This document shows positions 1 through 59,200 of a stretch of DNA of 64,000 nucleotides, in pieces. Source of the DNA: Bacteroidales bacterium (GTDB lineage Bacteria > Bacteroidota > Bacteroidia > Bacteroidales > VadinHA17); NCBI GenBank assembly GCA_041686075.1, contig JAWLEO010000013.1:12816-76815 (forward strand). Reading direction: 5' to 3'. A program made the translations under genes and the position numbers. Numbering within the stretch: position 1 is the stretch's first letter; each line of letters starts with the position of its first letter. The notes beneath the pieces were generated by a model. It worked only from the letters and a program-made list of their open reading frames with translations, had not been told where the DNA came from and did no database searches.

Positions 1-45
1 GATGAACAAATATCAGTCGAACTGGCAAGGACATTGACTGAATAA

Positions 46-507
46 TCAGAACTTAAGTTTCCTGTCTATTTCCCTCTGGGCATCCTTTCGCTTGAGTGTT
101 TCCCTCTGGTCATATTCTTTTTTACCCCTTGCAAGTGCTATCTCAGCTTTGGCTATACCGCGGTCATTTAAAAAGAGCTTTGTCATAATGATGGTAAATC
201 CGCTTTCCTTTGTTTTCCTTTCAAGCTTTTTCAATTCTTTTTTATGCAGCAAGAGCTTCCTTTCCCTCCCGGGCTCATGATTGTTGATATTACCCCACTT
301 ATATTCGGCAATGTTCATCCCCGTAACAAATAATTCACCATTTCTGAACCTGCAATATGAATCAACCAGGCTGGCTTCCCCTGCCCTGATTGATTTTATC
401 TCGGTGCCGGTAAGCTGTATCCCTGCAATATAGGTATCAATAAAGTTGTAATCGCGGGATGCTTTCTTGTTCTTAATGACAATACTATGTTTCTTTTCCT
501 TCTTCAT
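46..507 (-). CDS. smpB: SsrA-binding protein SmpB
   Basis: 153-aa ORF with the typical SmpB pattern (KKASRDY, GTEIKS, basic C-terminal tail). Its start overlaps the upstream ORF stop by 4 nt. Confidence 0.93.
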
Positions 508-1094
508 ACCCTGCCTGCAAATGAAAAATAAATGCCTTCCAGCAATGAACGGCTTATCCAGCTTATGGTAAAATAAAATACCGTTATTGTAAGCAAAGCT
601 ACAATAAAGTATCTTAATAAACTTTGTCCCTTAATATTTTGGACGGTCTTCAAGCCAACATAAAGGATGTAAGCACCGTAAAGTGAAAGTATGTTTATCA
701 GCGCGAGGTCAGGCAAAAACCTGGTTATAAAGACAGTAACAAAGAGGGGCGTAAGGGAATATGTCACCAGTTTAAAATTAAAGGAATAATCCCTGCTTTG
801 TATAAAAGCCGGTGAAAGCTCATTAAGGATCCAGGAAGAAAACAAAACAGTGAGGTAAAAGCTAAAAAATTGCTTTAATGCCAGTATTATGGGAAAAAGT
901 ATTGATAGACCGGTAGGATTATATATTAAAGAACCGGCGAAGGCAGAAAGAGATATTATTATGAGTAGAGGTAAAAGAAAAGATGATTGCACCGTTCCAA
1001 CGGACCTGCTTTCCTCCCTTATCGTTTCCCACGCCTTTACCGGGTGGATAATAATATACCTGGTCCTTTCCCTGAGCATCCGAAGATCTATCAT
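504..1094 (-). CDS. multi-pass membrane protein, Yip1-like
   Basis: 196 aa with a short soluble N-terminus followed by about five hydrophobic helices. The family assignment is from architecture only. Confidence 0.5.
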
Positions 1095-1151
1095 ATAGAT
1101 TGTCTTTTACAAAGCAGCAAAAATAACTAATTTTAAAGAAACAATTCAGGT

Positions 1152-2084
1152 ATGAAAAGCAGCAATTATGATATAGTAATAGTAACCGGACCTACTGCTT
1201 CAGGTAAAACCAGCTTTGCTGCTTTTCTGGCTTTATCAACCGGCGGTGAAATAATAAGTGCGGATTCCAGGCAGGTATACCGCCAAATGAATATTGGCAC
1301 AGGCAAGGATTATGATGATTATATTGTGGAGGGAAAGAAGATACCTTACCATCTTATCGATATTGTTGAGCCGGGTTGCAAATATAGCGTATATGACTAC
1401 CAGAGGGATTTCCTGAGAGTATACAGGAAACTAAGGGAAAGGGATGTTTTGCCGGTAATATGCGGCGGTTCAGGCATGTATATAGATAGCATAGTGAGCA
1501 GGTATAAGCTCATTGAAGTGCCTGTAAATAAAGAACTGAGAAAAAGACTCGCGGATAAATCACTTGCTGAACTGGCCACAATACTTTCGACTTATAAAAA
1601 CCTCCATAACATAAGCGATATAGACGACCGGGAAAGAGCCGTAAGGGCTATTGAGATTGAGGAATATTATCAGAAGAATGACCCCGGTGATGATTATTTC
1701 CCACAGATCAGACCGCTCATACTGGGCATCAGGTTTGAGAGGGATGAAATACGGAAAAGGATAAGCAAGAGGCTGGAGTCCCGATTGCAATCAGGCATGG
1801 TGGAAGAAGTAAAGTCTCTGATTGATAGGGGCGTTTCGGCAGATACTCTTGATTATTACGGCTTGGAATACAGGTATATTAGCCATTATCTCCTGGGGAG
1901 GATCACTTACGATGAAATGAAAAAAAGCCTTGAAACTGCCATACACCAGTTTGCAAAAAGGCAGATGACCTGGTTCAGGGGCATGGAACGGCGGGGCATT
2001 ACCATACACTGGCTCGACGAAGAACTTAACACCCAGCAGAAATTGGATTCAGCGTTAAAACTAATTAATCAGGGCTATGAATGA
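1152..2084 (+). CDS. miaA: tRNA dimethylallyltransferase
   Basis: N-terminal P-loop GPTASGKT, DSRQVYRQMNIGTGK motif, 310 aa. Ends in TGA. Confidence 0.93.
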   Translation: MKSSNYDIVIVTGPTASGKTSFAAFLALSTGGEIISADSRQVYRQMNIGTGKDYDDYIVEGKKIPYHLIDIVEPGCKYSVYDYQRDFLRVYRKLRERDVLPVICGGSGMYIDSIVSRYKLIEVPVNKELRKRLADKSLAELATILSTYKNLHNISDIDDRERAVRAIEIEEYYQKNDPGDDYFPQIRPLILGIRFERDEIRKRISKRLESRLQSGMVEEVKSLIDRGVSADTLDYYGLEYRYISHYLLGRITYDEMKKSLETAIHQFAKRQMTWFRGMERRGITIHWLDEELNTQQKLDSALKLINQGYE

Positions 2085-2124
2085 TGAATATCGGAGTAAC
2101 TAAAATCCTTCATCATTAGCTAAT

Positions 2125-2201
2125 CGACATTCGATATTGCTTCATCCCGATGGCTCGGGATTCAGCGAGCTCACAGCACTCATCTTGAATGCTCGGGATT
2201 C
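2125..2201. repeat. intergenic mosaic repeat block R1
   Basis: cgacattcgatattgc (2125-2140) is the reverse complement of collapsed CGAATNN heptamers seen at 31384-31418. gctcgggattc occurs twice (2153-2163 and 2191-2201). The block lies between convergent miaA and the S9 peptidase gene. Confidence 0.7.
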
Positions 2202-2265
2202 GCGCTGTTCGGTTTATCATTCGAACATTACAAAAGATAAAAACCATTAAAGAATTATCCTCAGA

Positions 2266-4332
2266 TTACTCTTTCAGGTAGGTATCTAACCACTTAAAAA
2301 ACTCTCTCTGCCATATAACTGCATTTTGTGGGCTTGTAACAAAGTGAGTTTCATTATGAAAGAATAGCAATTTACTGGGTACATCGTTCATCTGTGCAGC
2401 CGTGAAAGCTTCAAGGCTCTGTGTATAAGGTATCCTGTAATCGTGTTCACCAACAATAATTAATATTGGAGCCGTCCATTTATCCACATTCAGATGTGGT
2501 GAGTATTGGTAACCCACCGGTTTGGGATCTTCCCAGTATGGTCCGCCGATATCCTTATTCGGGAACCAGAGTTCTTCGGTTGAGCCATACCAGCTTTCAA
2601 TATTGAACATACCGCAGTGTGCTATCAGTGCTTTGAACCTGCCGTCATGAATACCCGCCAGGTAAAAGACTGAATATCCTCCATAGCTTGCACCCACAGC
2701 TCCGAGCCTTTCTTCATCAACAAAAGGTTCAGCAGCCATATGATCAATGGCATCAAGGTAATCCTGCATATTTTTCCCTCCGTAGTCACCTGATATCTGC
2801 TCTCTCCATTCGGAACCGAAACCAGAGTTACCACGCCTGTTGGGGGCAACCACTATATAACCATTTGCGGCCATCATCTGGTAATTCCAGCGATACGACC
2901 ATCCCTGACCCAGCATCCCCTGAGGACCTCCCTTACAATAAAGCAGGGCCGGGTATTCTTTTGATGGATCAAAACCAGGAGGGTAAATAATCCACATCTG
3001 TAAATCCTTCCCATCGCCGGTCTTGATATATCTCTCTTCTGTTTCCCCCATTTTGATATAATCGAAAATATGGTTGTTAACGGAACTTATTATATTCATG
3101 TCACCAGAAGTTGCGGCCACCGTGGCTACCTCGGTGGGCATTGACATAGACTGAATACCCGTGATGACGGTATCTTCCTTAACAACAACAGGGCTGAAAT
3201 TATATTTTCCCTTACTTATTTGTTTTATAGCCCCCGAGGCCAGATCTATATTGAATATCTGGACAGTACCCAGGTAGGGACTGGAGAAATAGATTTTATC
3301 CGCACCGGGTGCCCATATAATATTTTCTATGTTATAGTCCCATCCTTCCGAAGGCCATGATATTGACCGTTCATCAAAATCGTAGATGAATAATCTTTCC
3401 AGGTCCGATTCATAGCCTTCTTCTTCCTGGCTTTGCCATGCTATTTTTGACCCGTCAGGGGAAAATACCGGGTAACGGTCAAAACCTTTGTTTAATTCGC
3501 TGAGGTTTATTGTGCTTTCATCTTCGATCGTGTATAGATATATATCTGTGTTTGTACTTACTGCTGCTTCTTTACCCCTGAGTTTTTTACAGGTATATGC
3601 AATTTTTTTACCATCCGGGCTCCAGCTTATTTCTGACCCGTCAAACCAGGGGGCTGTAGGCGATTCATATTTTTGTCCTTCCATTATATCTTTTGCATCC
3701 TTTACTGCCTCACCATCGAAGGATGCAACAAAGATATGGCTGTAAGAATAATCGTGCCAGTAATTCCAGTGTCTGTACATGAGATCATCTATTATTCTCA
3801 TGTTGGCCAGGGGCATGTCATGTATTTCCCCGGGTGTCGTATCGAGTTTAACTCTCCTGGTGAAATATATCATATCGTCCTGTGGTGATATGGCGTAAAG
3901 CTCAAAATCGCTCAGATTTTCAATTTTCTTTTTTTTACTTCCGTCAGGGTTTATTGTCCAAAGGCTTCCCTGGTTTGTAAAGGCAATTTTTTCCCCCGCC
4001 ATGATCCACGAAGGTGAGCTGCCTCCTTCCTTCGTTAGTTGCACAGGATCCCCTCCCTCGATGGGCAGTGCAAAAATATTTGTTCTTCTTGCTTCATTTT
4101 CAAGCTTATATTCTGTAAGGGTAAAAAGTATGGTCTCACCATCGGGAGAGGGGCATATGTTGCCCATTCTTCTGAACTTCCATAGAATTTCAGGGGTCAT
4201 TCTTCCCCCTTCTTTTTCCTGTTCTGTCAGTTGCAGGTTAAAATCTGCCTGCTCTGTCGTTTCGATATCCTGACAGGAATAACTGATCAGCATCAACAGG
4301 AAAGATGCTGTCAATAAGTAAAAGCGTTTCAT
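2266..4332 (-). CDS. S9 family serine peptidase with N-terminal beta-propeller
   Basis: 688 aa with a signal peptide, several SPDG (PD40-like) repeats, the nucleophile motif GASYGGY, and a C-terminal His region HNETHF. Confidence 0.88.
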   Translation of the reverse strand: MKRFYLLTASFLLMLISYSCQDIETTEQADFNLQLTEQEKEGGRMTPEILWKFRRMGNICPSPDGETILFTLTEYKLENEARRTNIFALPIEGGDPVQLTKEGGSSPSWIMAGEKIAFTNQGSLWTINPDGSKKKKIENLSDFELYAISPQDDMIYFTRRVKLDTTPGEIHDMPLANMRIIDDLMYRHWNYWHDYSYSHIFVASFDGEAVKDAKDIMEGQKYESPTAPWFDGSEISWSPDGKKIAYTCKKLRGKEAAVSTNTDIYLYTIEDESTINLSELNKGFDRYPVFSPDGSKIAWQSQEEEGYESDLERLFIYDFDERSISWPSEGWDYNIENIIWAPGADKIYFSSPYLGTVQIFNIDLASGAIKQISKGKYNFSPVVVKEDTVITGIQSMSMPTEVATVAATSGDMNIISSVNNHIFDYIKMGETEERYIKTGDGKDLQMWIIYPPGFDPSKEYPALLYCKGGPQGMLGQGWSYRWNYQMMAANGYIVVAPNRRGNSGFGSEWREQISGDYGGKNMQDYLDAIDHMAAEPFVDEERLGAVGASYGGYSVFYLAGIHDGRFKALIAHCGMFNIESWYGSTEELWFPNKDIGGPYWEDPKPVGYQYSPHLNVDKWTAPILIIVGEHDYRIPYTQSLEAFTAAQMNDVPSKLLFFHNETHFVTSPQNAVIWQREFFKWLDTYLKE

Positions 4333-53094: not shown

Positions 53095-53589
53095 CTATTT
53101 TACCCGCATATAATTGACAGTATTTACAGGTTTGTTGTTTACATAATGAGTGATTTCCAACAAATCATGTGATTTAAATGTTCCTTCTGTTCTCTTTGAG
53201 GCTTCTTCAGGATTGGAAATATCCTTATAAGGGAATAAAACATAATTATTCTTTGAAATCCACTGCGCCACCCTTAATTCAACGACATCCCCTCCTTTAA
53301 TCTGGCTAAGACCTATCATTTTATCATGTGTTTTGTCATACGCCCAATTAATTCTTGCCTCCATAACGGTTTTCCCTTTTGTGACATACTTAACATTCGC
53401 ATCAATTCCTGTTCCGTAAGTGGCACAATCCATATAGCCAGTTGTGTCTTTAGCATACTCAAATTTCCATGAGCCTATAAGAGGGGATTGATTAATTAAC
53501 TCAACCTGGTTAAGTTTTGTCTGTCCGGTTTGTGCATGAATTGTACAAACAATAAATAGCATAGTTGAAAATAGAAATACTTTTTTCAT
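53095..53589 (-). CDS. secreted hypothetical protein
   Basis: 164 aa with a signal peptide (FIVCTIHAQ) and a beta-rich body. No recognisable motif. Confidence 0.5.
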   Translation of the reverse strand: MKKVFLFSTMLFIVCTIHAQTGQTKLNQVELINQSPLIGSWKFEYAKDTTGYMDCATYGTGIDANVKYVTKGKTVMEARINWAYDKTHDKMIGLSQIKGGDVVELRVAQWISKNNYVLFPYKDISNPEEASKRTEGTFKSHDLLEITHYVNNKPVNTVNYMRVK

Positions 53590-53691
53590 GATGGTTAGGT
53601 TTTGGTTGATAATTCAAGATACAATAATCTCATTATCAAATCAAATATATTTCTTAACTTGCTCTTATCTAACCATAAAACCTGATTTATT

Positions 53692-54210
53692 ATGAAACGA
53701 ATACTCTATTTACTGCTGGGAATTCTAGTTATTACCTACGCCTGTCAAACTGAGACTGAACTAACCGATGCTGATAAGGATGCTATGGTGCGAGATGTAA
53801 AGCAAGCAAGTCAGGAATTTGTATCTATTATTTCAAGTACCTATGATAATGAAACTTACAGTAAGGTCCTGAATTTTAATGATGAAAACTCTGATAAAAT
53901 GTGGCAAACAGAACCTGTTGCTGCCATCTTTAATATAAATGTTATTAATAAACAGGCAGCTAGCTTTGCAAACCTTGAGTCATGGTTTGAAAATAGAATC
54001 TCAGGTGTGGAAAATATTCAGAAAGCTCATTATTCGGTCTTGTCCGATAAAAAAGTTCTCGAAGTATTAGAAGGTGATTTTTCTATCACTTGGAAAGATA
54101 GTACTGAATCCGGTCCTTTTACATGGGTTGGCACAAATATATGGGCAAAAATAGATGGAGGATGGAAAATTCAATTTGTACACAATTCATTTGAACTACA
54201 ATCAGAATAG
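53692..54210 (+). CDS. hypothetical lipoprotein, possibly NTF2/SnoaL-like fold
   Basis: 172 aa with a lipobox (ITYAC). The fold guess comes only from size and the WKIQFVH-type C-terminus. Confidence 0.45.
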   Translation: MKRILYLLLGILVITYACQTETELTDADKDAMVRDVKQASQEFVSIISSTYDNETYSKVLNFNDENSDKMWQTEPVAAIFNINVINKQAASFANLESWFENRISGVENIQKAHYSVLSDKKVLEVLEGDFSITWKDSTESGPFTWVGTNIWAKIDGGWKIQFVHNSFELQSE

Positions 54211-54513
54211 CATTATATACTTTATAAATGGCTTACTCCCTCAAATCAAAGGAGGAGGATATAGAGCATCACCCCTGGACTTATGTCCGGGGGTTGTTTA
54301 GGCCGTTACAGCTATTATCTCCAAATGGTAGTGATGATCCAGGCAAAATAGATATTCCAAAAATGGCTCATGCGGCATCAAAGATCATTAGAGATGCTTT
54401 TTGTTGGTAAATGTGGGGTAATAGTGGGGAAGTTTAAGAATAAAGACAAAAAGACCACTGCCTTCGGCAGTTCGCCTTTCTTTTTCAGTCAACCATATAA
54501 AAGCAAGCTTTTA

Positions 54514-54915
54514 AGGGAATGTAAGATTACTCACCCTGCTAACGCAGGGTTCGTGATCTTTATTGGGGTTAATTCAAAAGACAAAAAAGTCTCCTTTCAG
54601 TCGGGTTTTATTGTCAGTTAGTCGCTTATGAAAATAAATTTTCAACGCTCCTTCCTTCCAATAAAAAAACCTGACATTTCTGTCAGGGCTTTTTTGGTCT
54701 TTTGTCGGGGTAGTAAGATTACTCGCTCTTCGCTATGCTCATCGCTCGTGATCATTTTGGAGGTTAATTCAAAAGACAAAAAAGTCTCCTTTCAGTCGGG
54801 TTTTATTGTCAGTTAGTCGCTTATGAAAATAAATTTTCAACGCTCCTTCCTTCCAATAAAAAAACCTGACATTTCTGTCAGGGCTTTTTTGGTCTTTTGT
54901 CGGGGTAGTAAGATT
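54514..54915. repeat. about 2.1 tandem units of 195 bp, each ending in a copy of the tRNA-Pro 3-prime terminus
   Basis: 54569-54720 is identical in register to 54764-54915 (offset 195). Each unit carries the terminator hairpin and the 16-nt tcggggtagtaagatt. A third, degenerate junction (gggaatgtaagattactc) is at 54515-54532. Confidence 0.9.
54858..54890 (-). terminator. bidirectional intrinsic terminator downstream of tRNA-Pro
   Basis: 7-bp stem cctgaca/tgtcagg with a 4-nt loop, flanked by A7 and T6. A duplicate lies at 54663-54695. Confidence 0.75.
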
Positions 54916-54974
54916 CGAACTTACGACCCCCTGCTCCCAAAGCAGGTGCGCTAACCGGACTGCGCTATACCCCG
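54900..54974 (-). tRNA. tRNA-Pro (anticodon UGG)
   Basis: The reverse complement folds as a cloverleaf: acceptor CGGGGTA/TACCCCG, D stem GCGC/GCGC, anticodon stem CCTGC/GCAGG with loop TTTGGGA, T arm GTAAG-TTCGAAT-CTTAC. It is 75 nt and CCA is not encoded. Confidence 0.92.
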
Positions 54975-55071
54975 CACTGCCCACCGAAGCTTCAGCGAAG
55001 GTGGGTTTCATCTGCTTTAGCCTAAGTGTAGGCGGAAAACTCATTTTCTTCTGCAAATCTAATAACTCTAT
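54954..55071. repeat. 118-bp direct repeat, copy 1
   Basis: Covers tRNA-Pro nt 1-21, the 47-nt spacer and the last 17 codons of the GIY-YIG gene. It matches 55401-55518 at 112 of 118 positions (counted by hand). Confidence 0.9.
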
Positions 55072-55285
55072 CCCTTTTCTTAAAGCTTTTTAGTAACTGC
55101 TCAACCTTATAGGCTTCTCCTCTTGTCTCAAAATTCTTCCAGTAAATCAACTTCCATGGCTTTCCTGATTTTGTGGAGTTGACCCTTCCTGCATTGTGTC
55201 TCTCCAATCTTGACTCCAGTTTCTCAGTCTGACCAATATAATACTTTCTATTCTTCTCCGATTCAAGTATGTAAACGAAATACAT
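55022..55285 (-). CDS. small GIY-YIG nuclease superfamily protein
   Basis: 87 aa with MYFVYILESEKNRKYYIGQT...RLERHN...WKLIYWKNF...EAYKVEQLLK. Its stop is 47 nt upstream of the tRNA-Pro 5-prime end on the same strand. Confidence 0.85.
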   Translation of the reverse strand: MYFVYILESEKNRKYYIGQTEKLESRLERHNAGRVNSTKSGKPWKLIYWKNFETRGEAYKVEQLLKSFKKRDRVIRFAEENEFSAYT

Positions 55286-55298
55286 TTTCTTAAATCTT

Positions 55299-55421
55299 GT
55301 GCGCTAATCCCGAAAAACACATTCCGCCGTATGGCGGACTGATGTTTTTCGAGGATCCTCGCAAAATCAGTTTTCGCTTCGCGAAAGGTGATTTTGCGGG
55401 ACCGGACTGCGCTATACCCCG
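55299..55421 (-). pseudogene. 5-prime fragment of tRNA-Pro (nt 1-29) split by a 93-nt insertion in the D-loop
   Basis: gtgcgctaa (55299-55307) and accggactgcgctataccccg (55401-55421) together equal 54946-54974. They are separated by a structured 93-nt insert. The anticodon and 3-prime half are absent. Confidence 0.8.
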
Positions 55422-55518
55422 CACTGCCCACCGGAGCTTCAGCGAAGGTGGGTTTCATCCGCATTAGCCTAAGTGTAGGCGGAAAACTCATTTTCCTCTG
55501 CAAACCTAATAACTCTAT
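55401..55518. repeat. 118-bp direct repeat, copy 2
   Basis: See copy 1. It still encodes ...RVIRFAEENEFSAYT*, and both substitutions in that stretch are synonymous. Confidence 0.9.
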
Positions 55519-55637
55519 TGCTATAAGCTAGCCAGCAAAAGCCCCGCAAAAGTATAAAAGCAATTTGGTTTTGCAATGGAATATTTGAAAATTATGAGGG
55601 GACAAGCTATTGAGCATACCCGGGTAAGAGGTGCAGA

Positions 55638-56042
55638 TTATTTTATTTCCGCCTTATATACCTTCAGACACCGGTAATTTACCCAGCTTAATAATAAGAA
55701 AAGGAACAAAAAGAAAACCTGTAAGATTGAAAATGCATCTGAGGATATCGTTAGTATTAATAGTATTATTATGATCCCGGTCAAAATTAAGTTTTGAATT
55801 AAATTAAAATATATCGCCCAGGCTTTCAACTTTGTAAATGCTATGAAAGCAATAATTTTAATCAAAAAGAATATGGCAATAGTTGTTATAATATAAGTAT
55901 TCACAAAATCGAAAACAGTGTATGAATCGCCTGTGAACAAAATGCCAAAAATGAAAAACAAAGGAATAGAAAAAAGCATTCCTGCAAGCTCAATAAGCTG
56001 CCATATTTGTGAGACTATGAATACTGGATTCTTATTTTTCAC
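55638..56042 (-). CDS. hypothetical four-helix membrane protein
   Basis: 134 aa, almost entirely hydrophobic helices, AT-rich codons. No recognisable motif. Confidence 0.45.
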   Translation of the reverse strand: MKNKNPVFIVSQIWQLIELAGMLFSIPLFFIFGILFTGDSYTVFDFVNTYIITTIAIFFLIKIIAFIAFTKLKAWAIYFNLIQNLILTGIIIILLILTISSDAFSILQVFFLFLFLLLSWVNYRCLKVYKAEIK

Positions 56043-56284
56043 GGTACTGCAAATATATATTCAAAACACAAATTAATTAATTTTCTATATTTTTTTATTC
56101 CAAAAAGTAAAAAAGAAAATGTATATTCACCTTTGTACATTTAACTATTAACTGCAAGTTGCTTTCCACATACAATTTTTTTGATCAATAGCTATGTTTT
56201 TGTAATTTGTAAGCTTAATAAACCTGAAACTGTAAGCTTGAGTATGGAAAAACTGCCAGATAAACTAACCGGAAAGAACCAAGT

Positions 56285-59200
56285 ATGAGTGAAGCCATTC
56301 TCGATGCCCTGATACAATTGTTTGCATTGATAGTTGATGTCGACGAGGAAAATGTTGTATCGGAAAGGGAAAAGGAGATAATACGCGCCTTCCTGACACA
56401 GCAACTCAACAGCGAACTGGCTCAAAAGTATATGGGTAGATTCGAGGAATACCTGCTTCTCTTCCATAAGGCCGATTTTTACCAGGATGCAAGCAAGAAA
56501 GAAAAACGTAAGAGCCTGGCAGCTAAAAAAATATGTGATATATGTGAAAAAATAAACGAAGAGCTGCAACATAACCAGAAAGTATTTCTTGTCATTCAGC
56601 TGATAGAGTTTATTTCACATGGTGCAGTTGTATCGAAGAAAGAAGCTAACTTCCTGGAAACAGTTGCCCGTACTTTCAATATACCGGATAACGAATACAA
56701 AAATATCTTTAATTTCATAGTCGGTACTATACACGATATTCCCGAACGGGATAAGATACTTGTTGTTAATAACCTGGAAAAGTACAGGTATGATGATGTC
56801 AAACATAAATACGACCCTAACTTTTCGGGTGAGCTGTACTTCCTCAGGATAGAAAGCACCAGGACATATATCCTGCGCTATACGGGATATGCCGATATTT
56901 ACCTTAACAGTCAGAATATTGTAAGCGGCCGGACGTATTCATTTGAGCATGGTTCATCAATACGAAACCCAACCATCAACACTATATTTTTCACCGATGT
57001 TGTAGGAATGTTCTCCGAGATCTTTGCAAAAGAAACAATATCGGTTATGGCTAAAGATGTAACCTTCTGGTTTAAGAATACCCAGAACGGGATACAGAAG
57101 TTCAATATGCATGCTAAATCAGGCACCCTTGTGGCCGTAATGGGTGGCTCAGGGGTAGGTAAGTCAACCCTTATCAATGTGCTTAATGGCAACCTGAGAC
57201 CGGACAGGGGTGAGGTGTTTTTTAACGGCTATAATCTTAATGACCCGGAGGAGAGAAAAAAAATCAAGGGGATAATAGGCCTGGTACCCCAGGAGGACCT
57301 GCTAATAGAGGATCTTACCGTTTACCAGAACCTGTACTATAGTGCAAAGCTATGCCTTGATAATCTCGATGACGAAGAAATTGAAGAAGTCGTTGATAAT
57401 GTACTTGACCAGCTTGATCTGAAAGACATTAAACATCTCAGGGTGGGCAGTCCACTTAAAAAGGTAATAAGCGGGGGGCAGAGGAAAAGACTTAACATTG
57501 CACTGGAGCTGATCAGGGAACCGGCGGTTCTTTTTATCGATGAACCTACCTCCGGGCTTTCTTCCATAGATGCGGAGAATGTTATGAACCTGCTGAAGGA
57601 ACAAACGGATAGTGGTAAGCTGGTTATAGCTAATATACATCAGCCTTCATCCTACCTCTACAAGATGTTTGATGAAATACTTATACTGGACAAGGGGGGC
57701 TACGAGATCTTTTACGGCAATCCCATGGAAGCCGTAGTGTATTTCAAACGGATGAGCAAACACGCAAACCCGGATGAGGATCAATGTGCCTACTGCGGTC
57801 ATGTGAATACCGATCAGATGCTGCAGATTATTGATGCCAAGGTGGTCAATGAACATGGTAAACTTACAAATACCAGGAAGGTCTCACCGGAAGAATGGTC
57901 GAAACTGTTTGATACACATATATGGTCCAGGCAAAAAAGAAGTATTACCGAAAAGGAAACTATACCTCAAAGCAATTTAAGCATACCCAATAAGATTAAG
58001 CAGATGTTCCTCTTTTTTAAGAGGGACCTTGTGTCAAAACTTGCCAATAAGCAATATTTACTGATAAGCCTCCTGGAAGCTCCCCTTCTGGCACTGATAC
58101 TGGGTTATTTTACAAAATATATTGACATTTCATCTGCCACTCCCGGTGAGTATGTTTTCTATTATAATGAAAACCTGCCGGCATACATCTTTATGTGTGT
58201 TATTGTGGCACTCTTCCTGGGGCTGATAGTGAGCTCTGAAGAAATAATAAGAGACCGCAGGATACTTAAAAGGGAGTCCTTTCTTAACCTGAGCCGCGGA
58301 AGTTATCTTAACTCAAAAGTATTACTCTTATTCATACTTTCTGCCATACAAAGCCTGTCATTTGTTTTAATAGGCAACTATATACTTGAGATAAAAGGGA
58401 TGACAGTTAGTTACTGGTTAATTCTATTCTCAACAAGCTGTTTTGCCAATATGCTTGGGCTGAATATTTCCTCAGGCTTTGACAGGGTCATTACGGTGTA
58501 TGTCTTAATACCCTTCCTGTTGATACCCCAGTTGCTCTTCAGCGGTGTAATAGTTAAATTTGATAAACTCCACAGGTACTTCACCAACTTTGATTATGTT
58601 CCTGTAATAGGCGATATTATGACTTCACGCTGGGCTTACGAAGCCCTTGCCGTCCACCAGTTCAAAGACAACAATTACCAGACATTGATATTCGATAATG
58701 AAATGGATCAGAGTCAGAACTACTGGTATTATTCATATCTTGTACCAGAACTAAAAAAGAAAACGCAGCAATGCAGCATTGCCATTGGCAAGGAACAATA
58801 CCGTGATCACTTTGAAAATAACCTTTACAAACTGACAAGATATGTCGGGTTCTTATTGGATAAATCAGGTATAAACAACAATGAATTAATAGAAAAATAC
58901 AATAGGGAGGATTTTGACACCGCAGTCGCCAGTATGACACTGAAACGATTGGAGGATATAGAAGACTATTTCAGGTCGCAGTTCCTGGCGGCCAGGGATG
59001 CATATAATGAAAATGTAGCTTCAATTGAAGATCAATATGGTCATGATTATTTACCCACTCTTAAGGAAAACCATCATAATGAGAACCTGGCAAATTTCTG
59101 TCTAAACCTCAGGAGCGAAGACCGTATAATTGAAACTGAAAAAAAGATAATCCAGAAAGCAGAACCCGTTTACATGATGCCCACATCAAATTATGGAAGG

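Follow-up and report, generated by a model that had tools for sequence, protein, structure and literature searches.

The closest described system to the element reported here is that of the Ssn nucleases; SsnA of Neisseria meningitidis, a single-domain GIY-YIG protein of 94 aa, binds a hairpin repeat only as single-stranded DNA (ssDNA) and cuts a few nucleotides (nt) away, and its gene is flanked by repeats (Chenal et al., 2025; PMC11893778). The word "tRNA" does not occur in that paper. The Seg enzymes, such as SegB of the T4/T6 tRNA cluster, are also encoded by free-standing GIY-YIG genes but exceed 200 aa and carry a DNA-binding domain (PMC2330249; PMC13096335). Here we describe a cassette with a small GIY-YIG nuclease gene found in a window of 64,000 nt from a Bacteroidales bacterium of the VadinHA17 lineage (GenBank assembly GCA_041686075.1, contig JAWLEO010000013.1, positions 12,816 to 76,815 of the forward strand); the window is the whole stretch of DNA that was analyzed, and positions count from its first letter. 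One unit of the cassette consists of a hairpin-tagged 5′ piece of a tRNA gene, the nuclease gene, a leader, and, to make the working tRNA whole, a new copy of its 5′ part; the cassette occupies the gap between the putative promoter and the body of the tRNA-Pro(UGG) gene. Our reading, to which we give a probability of roughly 60%, is that the locus holds a 447-bp cassette of an Ssn-type nuclease and its hairpins, present as one intact and one 5′-truncated tandem copy, that is long resident, largely vertically inherited, and selfish or semi-domesticated. What is new is that pairs of a predicted Ssn-type nuclease and its hairpin are embedded in tRNA genes, a layout encountered again in many other bacteria, at tRNA genes of many kinds.

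By analogy with SsnA, the enzyme of the locus is provisionally classed as an Ssn-type nuclease. Both are single-domain GIY-YIG proteins of about 90 aa (87 here, 94 in SsnA) whose catalytic tyrosines stand at a distance of 11 residues, with a glutamate farther along (Y5, Y16, and E62 here; Y6, Y17, and E64 in SsnA); both genes are flanked by a hairpin of cognate type that is also dispersed in the genome, and the stem base TCCCG..CGGGA is common to the hairpin modules described here and the Neisseria NTS CGTCATTCCCGCGMAVGCGGGAATCYRG. The systems differ in that the gene here lies inside a tRNA transcription unit and adjoins a hairpin-tagged partial tRNA copy, in that two long bulged hairpins, arranged with two-fold symmetry, make up the module here, as against one short hairpin in Ssn, and in copy number (16 here versus hundreds). 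With the Seg system the locus shares the GIY-YIG domain, a free-standing gene among tRNA genes, and presence or absence between relatives, and the segmental amplification promoted by SegB breaks resembles the arrays found here. However, the present enzyme is an 87-aa catalytic domain alone, without a DNA-binding domain; the cassette is chromosomal (searches found no homologue in a plasmid collection and, in a phage collection, only two weak matches to Listeria phages); and it lies within one tRNA's own unit, duplicates part of that tRNA, and carries a conserved hairpin. Integrase-dependent elements that target tRNA genes (attL/attR) likewise preserve tRNA function by partial duplication and are bracketed by direct repeats of tRNA sequence, but the unit here is 447 bp long, has no integrase (the 87-aa open reading frame, or ORF, is its sole gene), and duplicates the 5′ rather than the 3′ part of the tRNA; its displaced piece is interrupted by a hairpin, and tandem arrays are common. 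REP/BIME elements with RAYT and the IS200/IS605 family (HUH enzymes acting on ssDNA hairpins) similarly combine dispersed palindromes with one small nuclease-like gene, and recognition of ssDNA is a probable further likeness, whereas the cassette encodes, in place of an HUH transposase, a GIY-YIG nuclease, a hydrolytic enzyme that cannot rejoin DNA alone. Neither of these groups is known for such an association with tRNA genes. Full-text searches of the literature returned no paper linking small GIY-YIG genes to partial tRNA duplications.

All features of the locus lie on the minus strand, and their order is given along that strand (Table 1). The assembly that holds it (G000) is a 3.5-Mb draft in 90 contigs, designated below by C-numbers; it was compared with the congeners G001, G004–G006, G010, G011, G013, and G015, with G012, and with G019, from another genus, and homologous loci of the survey carry L-numbers. 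A 118-nt direct repeat with a spacing of 447 was detected by repeat search (96%), with five mismatches on direct count; the two copies match each other at E = 8.6e-51 and nothing else in the assembly matches them by blastn. Chance is excluded as the source of this repeat. The upstream part of the locus comprises a 3′ remnant of a GIY-YIG gene, a 47-nt spacer, nt 1–20 of the tRNA, an insert, TTAGCGCAC, and 13 nt; the downstream part comprises the intact GIY-YIG ORF, a 47-nt spacer of identical type, and complete tRNA-Pro, the only tRNA-Pro(UGG) that ARAGORN finds in the assembly. The original prediction had drawn the locus in just this way, as a GIY-YIG gene bracketed by 118-bp direct repeats 5′ of an intact tRNA-Pro, with the old tRNA 5′ part displaced upstream and disabled and the complete tRNA on the other side of the gene, and repeat search, blastn, ARAGORN, Pfam, and a direct reading of the order bear this out; its figures need small corrections, from 112/118 to 113/118 for the identity of the repeat copies and from 93 to 94 nt for the insert, whose presence was rightly seen and which lies exactly between tRNA nt 20 and 21. 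The T at 55401 has two possible readings, as nt 21 of the tRNA or as the base that opens the insert; the exact placement follows from a relative with C21, which reads GG|TCCCG...CGGGA|CTAGC. The remnant and the intact gene differ by two coding substitutions, both synonymous as had been noted (AGA>AGG and GAA>GAG), although two sites carry no statistical weight. The 13-nt leader of the ORF is probably, to judge from its resemblance to the tRNA, what decay has left of the displaced anticodon arm, which is better kept in G013, L055, and L060.

The period of 447 equals one full unit: the module of 94 nt, 8 nt (tRNA nt 22–29), the leader of 13 nt, the ORF of 264 nt, the spacer of 47 nt, and 21 nt (tRNA nt 1–21). 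Since the 118-bp repeat also extends 50 nt inside the nuclease gene, the repeat is the overlap of two tandem units, comparable to those of G013. The locus is best read as 1.26 tandem units, the upstream one having lost its first 71 codons and everything before codon 72, with the truncation junction GGCTAGCTTATAGCA|ATAGAGTTATTAG. A group I intron or other known RNA was considered and rejected: the tRNA is uninterrupted, and an Rfam scan of positions 53500–57000 returned only the tRNA and a sub-threshold chance match to STnc430.

Table 1. Features of the tRNA-Pro(UGG) locus and its 3′ flank in window coordinates, listed along the minus strand.
Feature	Position	Strand	Basis
Promoter-like motif (TTG, 19 nt, TACTTTTG), 5′ of the whole cassette	55547..55576	-	Pattern match at 55547-55554
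R1, upstream 118-bp repeat copy; 3′ end of a truncated earlier unit	55401..55518	-	113/118 identical to R2
GIY-YIG remnant, last 15 codons and stop (RVIRFAEENEFSAYT, then stop)	55469..55516	-	tblastn 93.8%, residues 72-87
Leader copy 1: degenerate hairpin, then hairpin CCCACCTTCGCTGAAGCTCCGGTGGG, then CAGTG	55422..55468	-	
Displaced tRNA-Pro nt 1-20	55402..55421	-	Exact match to intact tRNA
Double-hairpin module TCCCG-stem-CGAGGA / TCCTCG-stem-CGGGA, within D-loop of displaced piece	55308..55401	-	Inverted repeats
Displaced tRNA-Pro nt 21-29 (TTAGCGCAC)	55299..55307	-	
13-nt leader of nuclease ORF	55286..55298	-	Compare AAGATTTAAG with tRNA CTGCTTTGGG
Intact gene for 87-aa single-domain GIY-YIG nuclease	55022..55285	-	PF01541, E = 2.5e-17
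R2, downstream 118-bp repeat copy: nuclease 3′ end, leader copy 2, and tRNA nt 1-21	54954..55071	-	
Intact tRNA-Pro(UGG) (TGG anticodon in DNA)	54899..54974	-	ARAGORN; Rfam RF00005, 69.7 bits
Terminator-like hairpin and T-run 3′ of tRNA	54865..54882	-	Second copy 54670-54687
Two tandem 195-bp gene-less units 3′ of tRNA-Pro	54551..54915	-	Repeat search

The same site is in different states among congeners. G013, a genome assembled as a single contig, carries two complete and nearly identical tandem units (few differences) with a period of 384 bp, G004 carries one unit, and G005, G006, G010, G011, and G015 have a clean empty site with promoter, leader, and tRNA alone. The closest relative, G001, whose flank is 91% and whose neighboring ABC-type protein is 93% identical, has the truncation junction exactly as here, the remnant, and an intact tRNA, and lacks the intact nuclease gene; in G019 a hairpin-tagged tRNA stump lies 5′ of the tRNA and the gene is absent. 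Because the junction is common to G001, the truncation is older than the split from that species. Taken with the 4% divergence of the repeat copies and the saturation of synonymous sites between the nuclease genes of congeners (synonymous divergence, dS, about 1–1.6), this junction marks the arrangement as old and not, as the original prediction had proposed, as caught in the act. Its proposal of a single arrival of the gene with a replacement 5′ tRNA part is not borne out either, against the overlap of tandem units with a period of 447, and its further assumption that the tRNA part was brought in finds no advantage at the tRNA-Pro GGG and CGG loci, where each of the two tRNA-derived copies matches the local tRNA and an imported 5′ part is not visible; local duplication or ongoing homogenization fits at least as well. 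By the neighboring ABC-type gene, the genus falls into two groups, each with occupied and empty species, so that several independent losses or gains are needed. Exact scans of metagenome contigs with remnant-junction and promoter-block patterns, aimed at population alleles, gave no match.

The nuclease matches the GIY-YIG domain PF01541 at 63.3 bits (cut-off 22.6) over residues 1–70 of 87, and a domain search found no second domain. Across 15 relatives no change is seen at Y5, Y16, G18, R26, H30, N31, or E62, as expected of the GIY-YIG superfamily. The closest solved structures are the UPF0213 proteins 1ywl and 1zg2, at E = 2.7e-5 only, and a match to TIGR01453 is confined to residues 2–42 and lies under its cut-off. 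The gene is under purifying selection: the ratio of nonsynonymous to synonymous divergence (dN/dS) is 0.09–0.35 in 10 pairs, and 0.09–0.16 for the locus gene against its congeners, from which it follows that the protein has been kept functional over long times. Elsewhere in G000, contig C24 (positions 1–3700) carries three copies of a different small GIY-YIG gene in repeated blocks; their products (about 98 aa from ATG, MSRSYVYILKCSDGTYYTGSTKNL...) are UPF0213-like and 30–33% identical to the locus nuclease, and no tRNA was detected on that contig.

The insert that interrupts the displaced tRNA piece forms a module of 94 nt, TCCCG...CGAGGA|TCCTCG...CGGGA, of two long hairpins with one bulged base each, two-fold symmetric, that ends 23 nt 5′ of the ORF start; folded as ssDNA with the flanking D-stem of the displaced piece it reaches −40.8 kcal/mol (z = −8.2). 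Neither the closing bases nor the core changes among 36 distinct modules, while the interiors vary freely yet remain complementary, with 1189 Watson-Crick pairs, 7 G-T pairs, and 14 single mismatches. The scarcity of G-T pairs and the strand symmetry point to a structure at the DNA rather than the RNA level, and a function of the hairpins as RNA was set aside as unlikely on the same grounds. The 12-nt palindromic core CGAGGATCCTCG occurs in 16 copies in G000, mostly in two near-identical subfamilies away from tRNAs, and in 61 of the 151 genomes of the family survey, against none in any genome for a reversed-pattern control; hairpins of the module type number 23 in G000 and 0 in the control. 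Each of the 19 genomes that encode a close relative of the nuclease carries the module beside that gene, at the same tRNA position, as do all relatives of the same layout (type A, below). The insert as a one-off miniature inverted-repeat transposable element was ruled out, the same module being found at the same tRNA position throughout the clade. The fifteen other core-bearing modules of G000 lie on contigs C1, C2, C9, C11, C14, C18, C19, C24, C27, C34, C37, and C57, and the dispersed modules form part of larger composite repeats, in which other palindromes and simple repeats abound.

At a threshold of E ≤ 1e-8, homologues of the nuclease were found in 87 of the 151 family genomes, in many cases as tandem arrays with as many as about ten copies, and a second set of 80 loci was drawn from other species across phyla. 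A tRNA on the same strand lies within 150 nt of the ORF at 74 of 90 homologous loci, most others being array-internal or at contig ends, and a partial copy of the linked tRNA, usually hairpin-tagged, is almost always present on the far side of the gene. In type A, the layout of the clade that includes the present locus, the hosts are tRNA-Pro UGG, CGG, and GGG genes and the proteins are 48–76% identical to the locus nuclease; the order is tRNA nt 1–20, the double hairpin, nt 21–32 (to about 43), some 10–15 nt, the ORF, and the intact tRNA. Most type A ORFs run into tRNA nt 1 and take their stop, TAG, from tRNA nt 22–24, the protein ending in ...NNF-RGIAQSG; G000 and G004 deviate solely through the leader hairpin later inserted between ORF and tRNA. 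In type B an intact tRNA is followed by a terminator, the ORF, and a 3′ pseudo-tRNA, in which a hairpin replaces or interrupts the anticodon arm or T-loop. In a tree of 106 proteins the clades follow tRNA species, side, and hairpin type, although the tree comes from a short alignment that leaves many forks without resolution; the clade of the locus (G000, L043, G004, and G013) has an SH-aLRT value of 97, and module type changes 8 times among the 106 rows relative to nuclease clade. The collection of small GIY-YIG genes proposed in the original prediction thus revealed partial tRNA duplications at nearly all homologous loci examined, and its comparison of occupied and empty tRNA-Pro loci revealed congeners that are occupied, tandem, remnant-only, or empty; with duplications this widespread and congeners differing at the site, the layout is not an ancient fixed structure common to all relatives.

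The displaced piece is exact relative to the local tRNA over nt 1–20 and 96% identical over nt 21–28, lineage-specific bases included, and falls to background after nt 32; it ends at nt 32, or at about 43 in some lineages, a position that fits the nt 29–34 named in the original prediction. The other constant junctions are nt 20|21, at the hairpin, and nt 1, at the end of the ORF. A displaced piece this exact beside a gene with dS >1 calls for constraint, homogenization, or repeated renewal. In the GGG group, in which the upstream gene is syntenic, cassette and flanking-protein identities are 92.5% and 86%, 81–82% and 82–85%, and 69% and 72%; cassette identity that rises and falls with that of the flanking protein argues for mainly vertical inheritance in this group. 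Recent horizontal transfer was looked for and rejected: near-identical cassettes in different contexts were not found, and the best pairs reach 85–92%, following flank identity.

The motif TTG, 19 nt, TACTTTTG resembles a Bacteroidota-type promoter and is a candidate for that role; it is kept in occupied and empty relatives alike. The surrounding block ATTGCAAAACCRAAWTGCTTTTATAYTTTTGCGG is kept in G001, G005, G010, and G012 and slightly diverged in G013, and the leader after it is variable. With this promoter 5′ of the cassette and a sole tRNA-Pro(UGG), the tRNA would be transcribed through the cassette, unless the box TAGATTTG is a second promoter. Boxes of the form TAnnTTTG occur on the minus strand within the last codons of the nuclease (..VIRFA..) at 55054–55061 (TAGATTTG) and 55501–55508 (TAGGTTTG), 80 nt 5′ of the tRNA in R2 and of the displaced 5′ piece in R1, and similar boxes stand 17–30 nt before the tRNA in G004, G013, L043, L021, and L024; such a box may act as an internal promoter that drives the regenerated tRNA. 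It may be speculated that, in relatives whose ORF ends inside the tRNA, processing by RNase P would leave an mRNA without a stop codon.

These observations can be assembled into a mechanism. The cassette would be co-transcribed with the tRNA from the tRNA promoter, and the nuclease, in the manner of the Ssn enzymes, would recognize its own hairpin as ssDNA and nick nearby. Recombination between the tRNA-derived direct repeats would shift copy number, giving arrays by duplication and, by precise loss, the empty site; nicks near the hairpin would stimulate such recombination and, rarely, lead to establishment in another tRNA gene. Nick-stimulated recombination between tRNA-derived repeats would account for arrays, truncations, and precise empty sites alike, and such nicking fits, in its geometry, the junctions at nt 1, 20|21, and 32 to about 43, none of which is more than about 20 nt away from the hairpin or D-stem. 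Several points weigh against this reading. Two histories fit the locus equally well and are equally parsimonious: a tandem duplication followed by deletion, with a further deletion in G001, or the entry of an intact unit into a locus with a dead one; the order of tandem duplication, then truncation, is only one of these. The second leader hairpin, present in both repeat copies of G000, is missing in G001, so that the favored duplication history needs an extra step, and the states within the genus may reflect either loss or gain as the direction of change. The module core also occurs in 20 of the 64 family genomes without a nuclease match at the threshold above; the module can therefore persist or spread without the gene and may be independent of the enzyme. 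The SRM consensus published for the Ssn hairpins, HGTCWYN(0-2)YYVSBRHN(0-5)WNVSBRGN(0-2)RNCYNB, is not enriched, with 9 matches in the genome (none of them at the locus) against 16 in a reversed-sequence control; specificity for ssDNA and recognition of the hairpin would be properties carried over from distant relatives; and recombination on 20-nt repeats is inefficient.

It is possible, if doubtful, that the cassette represents a mobile class of its own, namely a miniature nuclease-only element with a symmetric bulged double hairpin that enters tRNA genes via ssDNA stem-loops, leaves a complete tRNA behind, rides on its promoter, and amplifies or excises via the tRNA repeats, the 87-aa enzyme being the cutter. 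Active homing, in which the nuclease would cut an empty tRNA-Pro gene in the D-loop or anticodon loop and repair would copy the cassette in with the tRNA pieces as homology arms, G000 then being a re-invasion of a locus with a dead copy, strikes us as unlikely. It would explain the presence and absence of the cassette at the orthologous site among congeners, and the intact copy beside a decayed one, together with a dead copy at tRNA-Asp (described below), is what a cycle of invasion, decay, loss, and re-invasion predicts; purifying selection acts on intact copies although relics are frequent, repeated insertion into a regenerated target would yield the observed tandem arrays, the displaced pieces remain identical to the local tRNA, and the design is common to three tRNA-Pro isoacceptor genes and many other tRNAs, with 50–59% protein identity across phyla. 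Yet the compared tRNA 5′ part is identical in occupied and empty species, so that no polymorphism for immunity is seen and a double-strand cutter would keep cutting its host, and an 87-aa protein without a DNA-binding domain is unlike every characterized homing GIY-YIG enzyme. Nothing in the record is recent, cassette divergence following flank divergence and dS between congeners being saturated; after moves between isoacceptors both tRNA copies are of the local type, with no imported arm visible, and the collections searched hold no plasmid match and only the two weak phage matches.

The hairpin might instead be the mobile agent, landing in the loops of DNA stem-loops, with the partial tRNA duplications as survivable landings and the nuclease as a passenger or host gene. 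The 16 modules of G000, with two near-identical subfamilies away from tRNAs, lend themselves to this idea, as do the module in genomes without a nuclease match, the gene-less tagged tRNA stumps in G019, at L111 (in tandem), and at tRNA-Cys, Met, and Gln of G000, and the hairpins nested within hairpins in leaders; but all 19 genomes with a close nuclease relative carry the module at the same tRNA position beside the gene, module type follows nuclease clade with only the 8 changes among 106 rows, the 447-bp unit offers no other candidate enzyme, and the Ssn precedent ties such proteins to such hairpins. We consider this decidedly improbable. Least credible, with a very small probability, is an assembly chimera that joined a G001-like allele (remnant and tRNA) to a one-cassette allele via shared leader and tRNA 5′ sequence. 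The genome is indeed a draft, and the two repeat copies agree fully over the 33 nt that lead up to the module; the five mismatches between the copies would nevertheless be resolved by k-mers >33, tandem units are present in the single-contig congener G013 and in many other assemblies, and both junctions are seen independently in other genomes.

Further units and hairpins linked to tRNA genes were recorded in the same survey. The spacer of the locus contains a second hairpin family, CCNCCTTCGCTNAAGCTNCGGNGG with CAGTG, at 54975–55004 and 55422–55451 on the minus strand, which is also present on C6 (3 copies), C9, and C32 and lies directly 5′ of tRNA-Pro in many species, including G005, G006, G010, and G013. 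Its stems show compensatory changes (CCTCC/GGAGG, CCACC/GGTGG, and CCGCC/GGCGG), and nested copies occur in G004, L016, and L023. This hairpin seems able to insert by itself, because it was gained between ORF and tRNA in G000 and G004. On the 3′ side of tRNA-Pro, a 170-nt direct repeat (54551–54720 and 54746–54915; period 195, 98–100% identical) has its start within the final 17 nt of the tRNA. Each of the two 195-bp units begins with those 17 nt, contains two terminator-like hairpins, and closes with a pseudo-T-arm end, GATCACGA-hairpin-GAGT|AATC; homologues lie 3′ of tRNA-Pro(UGG) in G005 and in other genera (L046, L047, and L060), and a like unit end is found 3′ of tRNA-Met on contig C4. 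These units may be a nuclease-less 3′ counterpart of the cassette or a small RNA gene.

At tRNA-Asp(GTC) (C2:24040–24250) a pseudo-tRNA is composed of nt 1–39, the hairpin TCCCGAGGACTCGGGA, and a piece of the T-arm, and the first 17–18 codons of a GIY-YIG gene (MKYFVYILRSTKDSSFYK) are fused straight to the intact tRNA, making this a dead cassette; it is homologous to an intact cassette at L039. Hairpin-tagged partial self-copies, from which the nuclease gene is absent, lie within about 250 nt of tRNA-Met (two loci), tRNA-Gln, and tRNA-Cys (C9:99945, C10:5640, C4:73906, and C12:71370 for the Met, Gln, and Cys copies together), and the Met (C9) and Gln units have a common block, GCGAGAAGTTTATCCTGAGCGAG-hairpin-CGAGTCGAAGG. 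ARAGORN calls remodeled pseudo-tRNAs as genes at L040 (G108), L042, and L099: that at L040 is called tRNA-Gly(TCC) and has the body of tRNA-Val with the hairpin TCCCGACTTCCAGTCGGGG as anticodon arm, and another is called "tRNA-Stop(TTA)". Hairpin-remodeled pseudo-tRNAs can thus mislead tRNA annotation.

Small GIY-YIG genes beside tRNA genes are annotated without comment in thousands of genomes. The present locus and its relatives show this association to have a fixed anatomy, in which a displaced partial tRNA copy with a hairpin in one of its loops is followed by a nuclease gene and an intact tRNA, and nuclease clades differ in the tRNAs and hairpins with which they are paired. Should the hairpin or the DNA of tRNA genes be what the enzyme acts on, the cassette would provide a simple, assayable system for structure-specific cutting of ssDNA, would explain the tRNA pseudo-copies and small arrays that lie by tRNA genes, and would represent a new, harmless route for selfish DNA into essential genes.

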